NCBI GenBank assembly: GCA_027728645.1
Contig: JAQCAA010000003.1
Location: 1-41,790 of the forward strand
DNA from: Actinomycetota bacterium
Lineage (GTDB): Bacteria; Actinomycetota; Acidimicrobiia; Spongiisociales; UBA5794
Reading direction: 5' to 3'
Length of the DNA: 41,790 nucleotides
Part shown: positions 2,174-41,325 of the stretch, piece after piece
Numbering within the stretch: the stretch's first letter is position 1
Layout: each line of letters starts with the position of its first letter
The notes under the pieces: generated by a model
Seen by the model: the letters and a program-made list of their open reading frames with translations, nothing else
The model's database searches: none
What the model was told of the DNA's origin: nothing
Made by a program: the position numbers and the translations under genes

Positions 2174-2202
2174 TTGACAGGCACGGCGCCGTGTCGTATT
2201 GG
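2174..2202 (+). promoter_or_regulatory. Putative housekeeping-sigma promoter for topA
   Basis: Perfect TTGACA at 2174-2179, 17-nt spacer, weak -10 (TATTGG). Confidence 0.4.
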
Positions 2203-2232
2203 TGTATGCCAACCCTTCCGAATGGAACTGCA

Positions 2233-5001
2233 TTGTCCAAGAAACTTGTCATCGTCGAATCGCCAGCCAAGGCGAAAACCATTGGGGGCTACCTTGGCGC
2301 GGACTTCATCGTTGAATCCTCTGTTGGACACATCAGGGACATCCCATCGAGAAAGAGGGATCTTCCAGAGAGCAGGCAAGACGCGTGGGCTAAGACTCGA
2401 TTCGGCATCGACATTGAGAACGACTTCACACCCATCTATATGGTGTCGGAATCCTCCAAACGCCAGGTGCAACTGCTCAAGAAGCTTCTGAAGGAAGTCG
2501 ACGAGCTCTACCTCGCAACTGATGAAGATCGCGAAGGTGAAGCGATTGCGTGGCACCTGCTTGAGGAACTCAAGCCAAAGGTGCCTGTCCAGAGAATGGT
2601 GTTCCACGAGATCACAAAGAAGGCGATCGAGGAGGCGGCAGCGAACCCTCGCGATCTCGATGTGCCACTCGTCCATGCCCAAGAAACGAGACGAATCCTT
2701 GACAGACTCTTCGGTTTCGAGGTTTCTCCTGTTCTGTGGAGGCGAGTGAGGCGAGGGCTGTCTGCGGGAAGGGTGCAGTCGCCAGCGACCAGGATCCTTG
2801 TCGACCGCGAGCGCGAACGCATGGCGTTCATCCGCTCGGCCTACTCGGGTCTCAAGGCAACGCTTTCGACAAAGGGCGCAGAGTTTCCAGCGCAGCTTCG
2901 CTCGATAGACAGCGTGAGGGTCGCCGATGGAAGCGATTTCGACGACAACGGAGTGCTGAAGAAGGACAGAAGAGCACTGTCTTCGGATGACGCGGTCGGA
3001 CTTGCCCAGGGGCTCAGCGGTGCTGACTTCACCGTTGGCTCGGTCGAGCGCAAACCGTATACCCGTAAGCCATACGCCCCATTCCGTACATCGACCCTTC
3101 AGCAGGAGGCTTCGCACAAACTGCGGTTTGGTGCGAGGCGCACCATGAGCGCCGCCCAAGCGCTCTACGAGCAGGGTTTCATCACGTATATGAGGACGGA
3201 TTCCACAAACCTTTCTGCCACTGCGGTTCAAGCAGCGAGGTCGTTGGTCTCTGATCGATACGGATCGCAATTCCTTCCAGACAAGCCACGTGTCTACGGT
3301 GCCAAAGCAAAGGGTGCTCAGGAGGCCCACGAGGCCATCCGACCATCGGGTGAGCGGTTCCAGGACATGGACCGTGCCGCTGGGCAATTCGGGCCGAATT
3401 CGGATGCGTCGAGGCTGTACGAGCTGATCTGGATGCGGACCGTTGCTTCCCAGATGAAGGACGCTGTTGGAGAAAGTCTCACGGTCAATATCGAAGCTGA
3501 GACTCTCGATGGTCAGACCTGTGCGTTTCGTGCTGGAGGGCGAACGATCACCTTCCCTGGCTTCTTGCGGGCATACGTCGAGGGTCACGACGACCCAGAC
3601 GCAGCGCTCGACGACCAGGAAACCCATCTACCCCAGATGACCGAGGGCGACACCCTCGTTGCGGTCGCACTTGAGCCAACGGACCACGAAACAAAGCCTC
3701 CAGCGAGGTACACCGAGGCTTCACTTGTGAAGCGCATGGAGGAGCTTGGGATCGGCAGACCCTCGACATACGCCTCCATCATTTCAACAATCCTCGACCG
3801 CGAGTACTGCTACAAGCAAGGGACAGCGCTCGTGCCCACGTGGAGGGCATTTGGCGTAATCGGGCTTCTCGAAAAGTATTTTGCTGACTATGTCGACTAC
3901 GACTTCACGGCAAAGATGGAGCAGGACCTTGACCGCATCGCCTCGGGCGACGAGCAGATGGTGCCGTACCTCAAGGCCTTCTACTTCGGGAACGGCCGGC
4001 CTGGCACTGGCATTGTCGACTTGGTGTCAGACGATGCCCTTGAGCGCATCGATCCAAAGGAAGTCAACTCGTTTTTGATCGGTGCCGGCGACGACGACGA
4101 GCCGATCATCGCAAGGTCTGGCCAGTACGGTCCGTATGTCCAACGTGGCGAGGACAGCGCATCGATTCCTCCTGATCTCCCGCCAGACGAGTTGACGGTC
4201 GCCAAGGCAGAAGCGCTTCTGAACGAACCGAAGGACGAGCGGTCACTTGGAAACGACCCAGAGTCAGGGCTCGAGGTGTTCCTCAAGACTGGACGGTTCG
4301 GCCCGTACATCCAGCTCGGCGAACGTATACCCGACTCGGACGAAAAGCCTCGGATGGCCTCGGTGTTCAAGTCAATGAACCCAGAGACACTGACGCTCGA
4401 CGATGCCCTCAAACTGATAACGATTCCACGCGAGCTCGGACCGCACCCCGACGACGCAGAGCCCGTTTTTGCAAAGAACGGTCCTCATGGTCCGTATGTC
4501 AACTGGGGCAAGGAGAACCGCTCGATCGGTTCCGAGGACCAATTGCTCACAATCACTCTTGACGAGGCAATCGTCGAACTCGCAAAGCCTCGTGAACGGA
4601 GAGGCGCCAAGCCGCCGCTCAAGGAGCTTGGCAAGGACCCTGTATCTGGGAAAGACATCGTCGTGAAAGATGGACGATTCGGTCTCTACATGACAGACGG
4701 CGAAACCAATGTGTCGTTCCGGGTGGCAGAGAACCTCGAAAACATCACCCTTGAGCATGCTGCAGACCGTCTTGCAGAAAAGCGTGCAAAGGGTCCTGCT
4801 CCGAAAAAGTCGCGAGCGAAGAAGCCGGCCAAGAAGCCGGCCAAGAAGCCGGCCGCAGCGAAGAAGCCCAAGGTGAACCCAGACTCTGGCGACGGCGGGT
4901 CGAGCCGTCAGAGATGGGACGGGAGCGCCAGCCCGCGTCCTGCCGACGGAGAGCTACACAAGATTATTGGATCGACTCAGAATCGACGAGAAGACGACTA
5001 G
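2233..5001 (+). CDS. topA: DNA topoisomerase I (type IA, actinobacterial type with C-terminal repeats and Lys-rich tail)
   Basis: KKLVIVESPAKAKTI, ATDEDREGE, SAGRVQS, ITYMRTDS, GRFGPY repeats and KKPA tail. Start uncertain (TTG 2233 or ATG 2206). Confidence 0.97.
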   Translation: MSKKLVIVESPAKAKTIGGYLGADFIVESSVGHIRDIPSRKRDLPESRQDAWAKTRFGIDIENDFTPIYMVSESSKRQVQLLKKLLKEVDELYLATDEDREGEAIAWHLLEELKPKVPVQRMVFHEITKKAIEEAAANPRDLDVPLVHAQETRRILDRLFGFEVSPVLWRRVRRGLSAGRVQSPATRILVDRERERMAFIRSAYSGLKATLSTKGAEFPAQLRSIDSVRVADGSDFDDNGVLKKDRRALSSDDAVGLAQGLSGADFTVGSVERKPYTRKPYAPFRTSTLQQEASHKLRFGARRTMSAAQALYEQGFITYMRTDSTNLSATAVQAARSLVSDRYGSQFLPDKPRVYGAKAKGAQEAHEAIRPSGERFQDMDRAAGQFGPNSDASRLYELIWMRTVASQMKDAVGESLTVNIEAETLDGQTCAFRAGGRTITFPGFLRAYVEGHDDPDAALDDQETHLPQMTEGDTLVAVALEPTDHETKPPARYTEASLVKRMEELGIGRPSTYASIISTILDREYCYKQGTALVPTWRAFGVIGLLEKYFADYVDYDFTAKMEQDLDRIASGDEQMVPYLKAFYFGNGRPGTGIVDLVSDDALERIDPKEVNSFLIGAGDDDEPIIARSGQYGPYVQRGEDSASIPPDLPPDELTVAKAEALLNEPKDERSLGNDPESGLEVFLKTGRFGPYIQLGERIPDSDEKPRMASVFKSMNPETLTLDDALKLITIPRELGPHPDDAEPVFAKNGPHGPYVNWGKENRSIGSEDQLLTITLDEAIVELAKPRERRGAKPPLKELGKDPVSGKDIVVKDGRFGLYMTDGETNVSFRVAENLENITLEHAADRLAEKRAKGPAPKKSRAKKPAKKPAKKPAAAKKPKVNPDSGDGGSSRQRWDGSASPRPADGELHKIIGSTQNRREDD

Positions 5002-5079
5002 CTCAGTCTCAGACCTTCTCATCCGTTCCTGTGTACGGCGGATCTATCGACGTGATGGCAGAGACGCGCCGTTGCCTGA
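4872..5079. other. Structured insertion of about 210 nt interrupting the topA 3' tail (mobile or ncRNA-like element of unknown class)
   Basis: Nested inverted repeats; the in-frame Lys-rich remnant CCA AAA AAG CCA GCG AAG AAG AAG TCG TAG follows at 5080-5109. Confidence 0.6.
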
Positions 5080-5157
5080 CCAAAAAAGCCAGCGAAGAAG
5101 AAGTCGTAGGGTCTCGTCCGCATCTCGGAGGGCTCTGATGACCGGTACCGTGTGGGC

Positions 5158-5766
5158 ATGACTGATCTTGCGCGGCGATACATCGCCTTCGAAGGGATTG
5201 AAGGGGCTGGTAAGTCGACGGTGGCGCGTCACGTCGCAGACCATCTCCGCGCCACCGGTCACGAGGTGGTGCTCGTGCGTGAGCCGGGAGGCACCGAAGT
5301 CGGAGAGAGTATCCGGCAGATCCTTCTTGGAGACGGCGAAGCACCTTCACCCCTCGCAGAAGCCGCACTGTTTGCTGCCTCAAGGGCACATTTGGTTCAC
5401 ACGATCGTACGACCCGCCCTCACAGCTGGATCGTGGGTCATCTCTGACCGCACGGCATATTCGTCGCTTGCGTATCAGGCGATCGGGCGCGGACTTGACC
5501 TTGATGCGATCAGAACTCTCAACGACATCGCGATCGGTGGGCTCTGGCCCGGAACGGTGGTTCTCCTCACGGTCGCGACCGATGAAGGTCTCGCCAGGCA
5601 AGCCGTCGACGACCGGATTGGGGGAGAGGCTGTGGCTTTTCACAGAGCCGTCGCAGCCGGATTCGATTCACTTGCCGCAGCCGAGCCCGAGCGCTTTGTA
5701 GTGGTGGACGCCTCAAAAGCGATAGAGGATGTCGCGGCCGCTGTCATAGACCGGCTTGGCTTGTGA
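5158..5766 (+). CDS. tmk: Thymidylate kinase
   Basis: FEGIEGAGKST P-loop, REPGGT, DR...SSLAYQ. TACCGT 6 nt upstream of the ATG suggests a leaderless mRNA. Confidence 0.96.
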   Translation: MTDLARRYIAFEGIEGAGKSTVARHVADHLRATGHEVVLVREPGGTEVGESIRQILLGDGEAPSPLAEAALFAASRAHLVHTIVRPALTAGSWVISDRTAYSSLAYQAIGRGLDLDAIRTLNDIAIGGLWPGTVVLLTVATDEGLARQAVDDRIGGEAVAFHRAVAAGFDSLAAAEPERFVVVDASKAIEDVAAAVIDRLGL

Positions 5767-6824
5767 CCCCTTTCTCAGAAGTCATTGGCCACGCGGCTGT
5801 CGTCAGCCTGCTCACGTCAGAACTTGAGAACCCCGCCCATGCGTATCTCTTCGTCGGGCCTTCGAATGTTGGGAAGGCTCTGATCGCCAGAGAGTTCGCA
5901 GCCCATCTCGTCGGGGGAGATGATCCCGATGCTGTGCGGCGAGCCGTCGAGGCGAAACATCCAGACGTCATCGTTGTGGCCCCCGAGGGCAGGTCATCGA
6001 TCACGGTCGATCAAGCACGTTCCGTGGTTTCATCGGCAGTGCTCGCCCCTCTTGAGGCGAACACCAAGGTGTATCTCTTTGAGGAAGCATCGATGCTCAA
6101 CGACGAGGCAGCCAATGCCCTTCTCAAAACGATCGAAGAACCAATCCACTCGTCTTCCTTTCTCCTTGTGGCTGACTCTGAGAACGACCTCCCATCCACC
6201 GTGGCCAGCAGGTGCAGAACGATTGTGTTCGGACGCGTCAGCGAAAGCGATCTTGTGGCTGGCCTCGTGAAGCACGGTGTTGAACCTGATCGTGCCCTTG
6301 AAGCGGCAAAAATCTCGGGGGGGCGCCCAGGTTTGGCACTTGCTCTGGCAACTGAGCCTGCGGTGGCTGCGTATCGAGATGCGTGGATGTCGGTGCCAGC
6401 GGAAGTCACAGACCATCCGGGCGATGCGTACCGGCTTGTGGGCGATGTGCTTGATGCAACAGAGCCGCTGCTTGATGCCATCAAGCGACGCCAAGCAGAC
6501 GAACTGGCTCTTCACCATCCCGATGGGAACGCCCCAAGGACATTCATCGACCGTCAGCAGCGCGAGCTTTCGAGGGCTTCGGATGCGCTGTACGTGACGG
6601 GGCTTGAACTGCTCGCGAGTTTCTATCGTGACACCGCTGCGGCTCAGCTTGGTGCCGAAGTGGTGAACGCAGACGTAGACGTCACGCTCCTGACGCGGCT
6701 CGATGTGCCGACAGCTGTGGCTCGTGCTGAGAGAGTTTTTGGCGCAATCGAGGCACTCGAAGCGAACCAACGACCGAACCTCGCTCTTGCGTCGCTGTTC
6801 GTGGACCTTGGTCAGGATGCCTAG
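5763..6824 (+). CDS. holB: DNA polymerase III subunit delta'
   Basis: HAYLFVGP..VGK, HPDV, AANALLKTIEEP, TVASRC (SRC); follows tmk. Confidence 0.93.
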   Translation: MTPFSEVIGHAAVVSLLTSELENPAHAYLFVGPSNVGKALIAREFAAHLVGGDDPDAVRRAVEAKHPDVIVVAPEGRSSITVDQARSVVSSAVLAPLEANTKVYLFEEASMLNDEAANALLKTIEEPIHSSSFLLVADSENDLPSTVASRCRTIVFGRVSESDLVAGLVKHGVEPDRALEAAKISGGRPGLALALATEPAVAAYRDAWMSVPAEVTDHPGDAYRLVGDVLDATEPLLDAIKRRQADELALHHPDGNAPRTFIDRQQRELSRASDALYVTGLELLASFYRDTAAAQLGAEVVNADVDVTLLTRLDVPTAVARAERVFGAIEALEANQRPNLALASLFVDLGQDA

Positions 6825-8420: not shown

Positions 8421-8495
8421 GCCGGGGTAGCTCAGGGGTAGAGCAACGCACTCGTAATGCGTAGGCCGCGGGTTCAAATCCCGCCTCCGGCTCCA
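8421..8495 (+). tRNA. tRNA-Thr(CGT)
   Basis: Acceptor GCCGGGG/CTCCGGC, anticodon arm ACGCA-CTCGTAA-TGCGT, T-arm GCGGG-TTCAAAT-CCCGC, encoded CCA; extended -10 TGGTATCAT at 8401-8409. Confidence 0.97.
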
Positions 8496-41251: not shown

Positions 41252-41325
41252 GCTGGCGTAGCTCAGTTGGCCAGAGCAGCCGCCTTGTAAGCGGCAGGTC
41301 ATGGGTTCGAGTCCCATCGCCAGCT
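41252..41325 (+). tRNA. tRNA-Thr(TGT)
   Basis: Acceptor GCTGGCG/CGCCAGC, anticodon arm GCCGC-CTTGTAA-GCGGC, T-arm ATGGG-TTCGAGT-CCCAT; CCA not encoded. Confidence 0.97.

Follow-up and report, generated by a model that had tools for sequence, protein, structure and literature searches.

We analyzed a 41,790-nucleotide (nt) stretch of DNA from an Actinomycetota bacterium (GenBank assembly GCA_027728645.1, contig JAQCAA010000003.1, positions 1 to 41,790), referred to here as the window, and focused on the 3' end of its topA gene, where unrelated DNA splits the coding sequence for the lysine-rich tail of the encoded topoisomerase. TopA is an actinobacterial type IA topoisomerase with lysine repeats: Pfam identifies Toprim and Topoisom_bac domains and C-terminal repeats (four copies of Toprim_C_rpt) but no zinc fingers, and these domains are followed by a Lys-repeat tail. 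No second topA match is present in the 1.95-Mb, 158-contig assembly, in which the gene in the window is the sole match. The features of the locus are as follows, with the evidence for each in parentheses.

2191-5001, + strand: topA in its present form (936 amino acids), with a new stop codon, TAG, at 4999-5001 (open reading frame (ORF) list, Pfam)
4804-4872, + strand: retained Lys-rich tail of TopA, 23 codons, KKSRAKKPAKKPAKKPAAAKKPK (sequence)
4873-5079, + strand: insert core, 207 nt (69 codons), orphan, non-coding-like DNA (contigs with and without the insert, homology searches, coding statistics)
4873-5001, + strand: new 42-codon C-terminal extension of TopA, VNPDSG...NRREDD, plus stop (translation)
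4885-4901, no strand assigned: left arm of an inverted repeat, 17 nt, 82% complementary to 5063-5079 (repeat search; closing helix of the predicted fold)
5063-5079, no strand assigned: right arm of this inverted repeat, flush with the right core boundary (repeat search, shuffle tests)
5080-5109, + strand: relic of the ancestral topA terminus, PKKPAKKKS plus stop, now untranslated (topA frame, empty-site allele)
5158-5766, + strand: tmk, thymidylate kinase (ORF list; Pfam Thymidylate_kin)
5763-6824, + strand: holB (ORF list; Pfam HolB)

The retained tail includes a perfect 12-nt tandem repeat, three copies of AAGAAGCCGGCC at 4819-4854 (Tandem Repeats Finder, direct repeat families). An earlier note on this DNA had described a tail that leaves its Lys-rich pattern at 4873, continues for 42 unrelated residues to TAG 4999-5001, encounters further stops at 5053 and 5077, and reappears as PKKPAKKKS plus stop at 5080-5109. 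This description of the sequence is accurate: stop codons in the topA frame lie inside the insert at 4999, 5053 and 5077, and the relic codons CCA AAA AAG CCA GCG AAG AAG AAG TCG TAG follow in that same frame. Comparison with an empty-site allele, described below, gives the insert a largest extent of 240 nt (4843-5082). Overall, the right boundary falls at 5079-5082 and the left boundary between 4842 and 4872, for a length of 207-240 nt, and all candidate lengths are multiples of three.

Two further features of the tail can be noted at this point. In the relic, A AAA AAG at 5082-5088 lies in the topA frame, a heptamer of the classic -1 slippery type, and from 4755 to 5138, throughout the insert, the -1 frame contains no stop codon; the slippery-like heptamer is probably a mere consequence of the Lys codons. 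The acidic end of the new tail (..R-E-D-D, 4996-4998) resembles the ends of Streptomyces TopA proteins, of which about 80% carry two acidic residues after the Lys repeats at the C-terminus, according to PMC5714199. This resemblance is probably a coincidence.

We compared positions 4300-5700 with Logan contigs assembled from four sequencing runs (X1, X2, X3 and X6) that belong to four studies. One 453-nt contig from X3 (record 17) matches 4825-5277 with 0 mismatches, and this single contig links the tail repeats to tmk by way of the entire insert and the relic. Two contigs from X2 (records 6 and 9) match 4816-4985 and 5003-5204, and one from X1 (record 4) matches 4891-5700, all with 0 mismatches. 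The earlier note had allowed for an assembly artefact that reads would expose; these contigs from X3, X2 and X1 instead carry the insert without a single mismatch. Contig depth in X1 is 8.7, while depth over the insert compared with its flanks is 3.3-4.4 versus 5.3 in X2 and 4.5 versus 3.7 in X3. Because the depth of the insert equals that of its flanks, we conclude that it is single-copy in the sampled populations.

The fourth run contains the locus in a different form. Record 21 of X6 (572 nt, depth 5) matches 4495-4842 with 21 differences and then 5083-5306 with none, skipping 240 nt. This contig, from a related strain, is an empty-site allele that reads ...KKPAKKPA/KKPAKKKS plus stop, with the slash marking the insertion site, and the relic terminus in the window is identical to the working terminus of this allele. 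Thus, the empty-site allele that the earlier note had suggested looking for among related topA ends is present, as a contig that joins 4842 directly to 5083. The skipped form is known solely as DNA of a diverged strain, and none of the 23 runs listed is recorded as RNA. The two sides of the site differ in their divergence from the window: to the left, the 21 differences are spread over 348 nt, and 15 of the 16 listed ones fall at third codon positions, while to the right there are 0 differences over 224 nt and then 5 over 198 nt (5500-5697). This sharp change at the site suggests either that a recombination tract ends at the topA tail or that the contig passes from one strain to another at that point.

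We read the topA ends of 14 relatives (eight from the same genus, two from the same family, and four metagenome loci), and all 14 lack the insert. Four of these genes end in ...(P/T)AAKKK, and the rest are shorter, down to EKRAKA; after the conserved EKRAKGPAP, the tail is very variable among the relatives, ranging from 0 to 22 residues. Two genomes of 82-84% completeness (G002 and G009) gave no usable topA end, and metagenome locus L046 stops before the tail. Among the nine metagenome loci with a TopA end, L042-L045 have short tails without the insert and the distant L047-L050 (30-53% identity) were left out; loci L013-L031 were likewise left out of the tail comparison.

The distance between topA and the downstream tmk gene also bears on the ancestral state. 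From the topA stop codon to the EGxxGxGK (P-loop) motif of tmk, this distance is 81 nt in G008 and G001, 80 nt in G010, and 78 nt in two metagenome loci, and the relic stop in the window (5107-5109) lies exactly 81 nt before the same motif. Since the relic stop keeps the spacing seen in relatives, the ancestral terminus is PKKPAKKKS, and the state with the insertion is the derived one. The claim of the earlier note that an insert splits the Lys-rich tail and leaves the original C-terminus in frame downstream is therefore borne out by the sequence itself, the empty-site allele, the 14 relatives and the 81-nt spacing.

Searches with the insert identified neither a family nor a source. Further copies in its own and related genomes, which the earlier note had proposed to seek, did not appear: the single match in its own genome is the insert itself, and the insert portion of a 1-kb query had zero matches in 40 related genomes. 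In 400 genomes of the order, only chance matches of 17-56 nt were found (best E 1.1e-3); the counts over the 40 relatives and the 400 order genomes include G038, a genome flagged unpublished on which none of the individual claims depends. Phage records gave one 36-nt match (E 0.06) and plasmid records none, and three exact words of 20-22 nt taken from the insert had 0 matches in metagenome, genome and viral contig collections. A donor was not found in the insert's own genome by blastn-short or by six-frame tblastn, whose chance matches run through stop codons, nor was a donor sequence found in any other collection searched. The 42-residue tail (TopA region 893-936) yielded two word candidates, neither of which scored, in a collection of 5.8 billion proteins from which candidates were limited to proteins of 514-1638 residues. 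The open +1-frame ORF at 4877-5158 matched two of 1.84 billion representative proteins at E ~1e-5; both are internally repetitive, and we rejected these matches as repeat score inflation because each single alignment reaches only ~25 bits at 33% identity.

The insert also lacks the character of a gene or of a known RNA. Coding statistics trained on 546 long ORFs of the genome detected no coding signal in any of its six frames (-0.08 to -0.84 bits per codon, compared with 0.39 +/- 0.16 for true genes), and two alternative-frame ORFs had zero Pfam matches. The G+C content at the three codon positions is flat (0.59-0.61), compared with 0.65/0.46/0.65 in real genes, and the overall G+C content of 0.60 is near that of the genome (0.584). 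When 4600-5400 was searched with cmscan against all 4227 families of Rfam 15 at E <= 10, only two chance matches were returned (a snoRNA at 12 bits and an sRNA at 9 bits). No Rfam model of a group I or group II intron catalytic core matched the insert at that threshold; the earlier note had recognized no intron core. ARAGORN found no tRNA or tmRNA in the insert, and promoter-like or terminator-like sites are absent from it.

The earlier note had called the insert highly structured. The complementary segments that it listed exist, and most of them are part of the predicted fold; however, the stability of that fold is only marginally beyond that of shuffled sequence, and on one strand only. On the + strand, 4867-5085 folds with a z-score of -1.74 (9 of 200 dinucleotide shuffles are equally stable), and five other choices of boundaries give z-scores of -0.73, -1.86, -1.79, -2.23 and -2.46 (67, 16, 14, 6 and 4 of 300 shuffles, respectively). 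The weakest of these values belongs to the empty-allele boundaries, 4843-5082, and the strongest to 4885-5079. On the - strand, the z-score is +0.47, and ranges from +0.79 to -1.22 with other boundaries. Across 27 ordinary 207-nt segments of the same contig, the mean z-score is -0.24 (standard deviation 0.87) with a lowest value of -1.79; since this background reaches -1.79, the insert sits at the edge of the ordinary folding range. It exceeds that range only when the boundaries are set to begin at the inverted repeat, a choice made in hindsight on which the stronger values depend.

Overall, these data are probably best explained by an insertion that is recent and specific to this lineage, in which ~207-240 nt of orphan, non-coding DNA entered topA at its repeat-rich 3' end. 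The event looks ordinary and tolerated, and it affects a dispensable, repeat-rich end of an essential gene. A tail built of near-identical Lys, Pro and Ala codons with a perfect tandem repeat would be a likely place for slippage and breakage, and illegitimate joining may have repaired a break, or the outcome of a replication accident, within or next to the AAGAAGCCGGCC repeat. The most likely route would be Ku/LigD end joining that captured a stray DNA fragment. The genome encodes both proteins, adjacent to one another on contig C94 (Ku_bact TIGR02772, 275 bits against a cut-off of 150; ligD_pol TIGR02778, 235 bits against a cut-off of 214.7), and end joining is therefore possible in this organism. 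Capture of heterologous DNA into genomic breaks by bacterial non-homologous end joining is described in PMC6379672.

Several features of the locus would account for the tolerance of such an insertion. Upstream of the insert, 23 of the ~31 Lys-rich tail residues are kept; the tail is highly variable both in the genus and among Actinobacteria; and the region upstream of tmk is left untouched. According to PMC5714199, the number of Lys repeats varies among and within actinobacterial genera. TopA would gain a 42-residue, probably disordered, end and lose KKPAKKKS, and removal of the insert at the RNA level would not be needed.

A number of observations weigh against an ordinary insertion of filler DNA. 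The contigs from X1-X3 all break within the 36-nt tandem repeat, and the evidence that joins the insert to unique topA sequence (left of 4816) is therefore the assembled genome contig itself; moreover, one of the three insert-bearing runs may be the genome's own source sample. The search for a donor came up empty, and the captured fragment is only what we infer. Passive filler DNA need show neither a folding excess nor an end-proximal inverted repeat, yet the + strand folds somewhat better than shuffled sequence (z-scores down to -2.46, 4 of 300 shuffles) and a 17-nt inverted repeat lies near both ends of the insert (4 of 2000 shuffles in the terminal 40 nt). Finally, the length of the insert (207, 210 or 240 nt) keeps the frame, which has a 1-in-3 chance of occurring, and an element that is removed from RNA needs the same property.

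One alternative is a reading in which a solo or decayed, non-autonomous element resembling a miniature inverted-repeat transposable element (MITE) transposed into the topA tail, its sub-terminal repeats being leftover transposase binding sites. The sole sign of a mobile element in the insert is its sub-terminal inverted repeat (17 nt, 82%). Its right arm ends exactly at the insert boundary (5079), and an equally good repeat confined to the terminal 40 nt is rare in shuffled sequence (4 of 2000 shuffles of 4873-5079 and 7 of 2000 of 4867-5100); on the other hand, its left arm sits 12 nt inside the left core boundary, and an inverted repeat of this strength occurs anywhere in the insert in 137 of 300 shuffles. 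The size of the insert fits MITEs, and single-copy prokaryotic MITEs occur, with MITEAba12 present in 1-22 copies per genome according to PMC10969869. An assembly of 158 contigs and 93.8% completeness can lose repeats; nevertheless, no second copy was found in the genome itself, in 10 same-genus genomes, in the 400 order genomes, among phages and plasmids, or in the three word-searched collections, and the depth of the insert is that of its flanks. Pairs of the end motifs are not enriched in the genome: allowing up to 3 mismatches there is 1 pair, which is the insert's own, and allowing up to 4 mismatches there are 7, compared with 0-6 for shuffled motifs.

The insert also has no target-site duplication. 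The only direct repeat that flanks it is the 11-nt CAGCGAAGAAG, at 4856-4866 and 5090-5100. We considered this repeat as an 11-nt target-site duplication (spacing 234 nt), since deletion of one copy together with the intervening DNA gives an end of ...PAAAKKKS, like the PAAKKK of relatives, and rejected it because the empty allele already holds 5083-5094; the repeat is native Lys-tail sequence. With no second copy, no target-site duplication and marginal folding on one strand, the proposal of the earlier note that the insert is a structured mobile element is not supported, and we regard a MITE-like origin as unlikely.

A functional, structured RNA on the + strand could act in cis or as a small RNA from its place between topA and tmk, or it could be an element whose removal or bypass, in the RNA or during translation, would allow the old terminus to be made as before. 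Only the + strand beats shuffled sequence (z-scores of -1.8 to -2.5, compared with -0.1 to -1.2 for the - strand at the same boundaries), with values at or beyond the lowest of the 27 background segments, although the empty-allele boundaries bring the z-score to only -0.73 (67 of 300 shuffles) and all of these values come from a single insert sequence. As this reading would have it, the insert spans a multiple of three nucleotides and the relic terminus shows no decay, but a recent insertion explains an undecayed relic equally well. One in-frame choice of ends places a U before the removed part and a G at its end, as group I splicing requires; such coincidences are common. No Rfam family, intron and ribozyme models included, matches at E <= 10, and the insert is devoid of promoter-like and terminator-like sites. 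To our knowledge, 204-240 nt is at or below the size of the smallest self-splicing introns, which counts against excision of this kind. In translational bypassing of phage T4 gene 60, a stop codon follows the take-off codon, and here no stop follows a candidate take-off codon. The suggestion of an intron-like element or non-coding RNA has thus found neither an Rfam match nor more than marginal, one-strand folding, and we consider an RNA function quite improbable. The broader proposition that the insert is the first copy seen of a small structured element, whether a mobile one with sub-terminal repeats or an RNA subject to excision or bypass, and that it is tolerated since a working TopA end is still made, seems to us similarly improbable: the + strand folding excess, the end-proximal inverted repeat, the frame-keeping length and the intact relic are all compatible with such an element, and none of them demands one.

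It is more improbable still that the segment is ancestral and has been deleted between Lys-codon repeats both in the empty allele and in the relatives. The segment does lie between direct repeats of Lys-tail codons (D2 and D3), which could mediate such a deletion, but the segment is missing from all 14 relatives read, and many independent losses would therefore be needed. In addition, the topA stop precedes the tmk motif by 78-81 nt in four lineages, a spacing that the relic stop shares, and the segment breaks an otherwise continuous Lys-repeat tail with stop codons. Least credible of all is a chimeric join assembled through the Lys-codon repeats: in each of the four runs, AAGAAGCC-type repeats of many organisms do accumulate over 4816-4867, accompanied by loose ends and by spikes in depth of 18-67, and no Logan contig from X1-X3 bridges 4790-4816, but the X3 contig runs without mismatch from the tail repeats to tmk, X2 and X1 agree with it (three studies in all), the repeat is only 36 nt and thus shorter than ordinary reads, and the synteny of topA, tmk and holB is kept.

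The interval between topA and tmk is a variable spot within the genus. In the window, tmk begins at ATG 5158, a start conserved among relatives, with a GTG at 5152 in the same frame, and the topA-tmk-holB synteny is kept. Three same-genus genomes have longer spacers (281 nt in G003, 198 nt in G004 and 750 nt in G005), which share only chance matches of 8-14 nt with the insert. In G003 (L003, reverse strand) and G004 (L008), short tails ending in PAPKKKKR and PAPKKK, respectively, are followed by G+C-rich spacers of 200-280 nt that share sequence with one another and are unrelated to the insert; the G003 spacer contains repeated hairpin-like GGGAGGACGG...CCGTCCCC units. In G005 (L009:1909-2660), the tmk motif follows the topA stop at a distance of ~750 nt, and this interval includes an extra open frame of 191 codons, whose sole Pfam match is weak and below the cut-off (DUF3108, E 9e-4). 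The spacer of G006 (L007) carries a short tandem array of 7-8-nt units resembling GTGAACC and GTAAACC. Elsewhere in the window, tRNA genes at 8421-8492 and 41252-41325 are the sole Rfam matches at gathering score.

The insertion is confined to one lineage of a small aquatic actinobacterium, in which it provides a natural pair of filled and empty alleles: unrelated DNA entered an essential gene at its repeat-rich end and was tolerated, giving the protein a new tail and leaving the old stop codon as a fossil. For annotation, the locus is a reminder that homology between this TopA and those of its relatives does not extend to the C-terminus. The filled and empty alleles would make a natural pair for comparison if, as in Streptomyces, the tail is important for processivity; in other respects, the event is an ordinary one.

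Several known systems resemble parts of this locus. Small bacterial group I introns share its size range, interrupt a coding region and leave the downstream exon in frame, whereas this insert, known here from DNA alone, has neither an Rfam intron match (E <= 10) nor a recognizable core. Rickettsia palindromic elements (RPEs) and intragenic MITEs, as described in PMC10969869, are likewise short (100-250 bp), have inverted-repeat character and keep the frame within a coding gene. Those elements come in multi-copy families, and the host protein includes their translation; this insert is single-copy with no relatives found, has no target-site duplication, and contains three in-frame stops (4999, 5053 and 5077), such that translation ends inside it in place of the in-frame read-through typical of RPEs. 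Ku/LigD capture (Dupuy et al. 2019, PMC6379672) is similar in that unrelated DNA is inserted without homology, target-site duplication or transposase; that study used engineered breaks in Sinorhizobium meliloti, while for the topA insert we infer the mechanism and found no donor. A further comparison is with tail length variation in actinobacterial TopA (Strzalka et al. 2017, PMC5714199), which concerns the same family and a Lys-repeat tail that varies in number. The new end is acidic (..EDD), as in most Streptomyces TopA, and nothing suggests that this has been selected. The relatives compared here range from EKRAKA to a Lys-rich stretch of 22 residues, and the window departs from that pattern of repeat gain and loss in that unrelated DNA, bringing its own stop codon, has stranded the old terminus.

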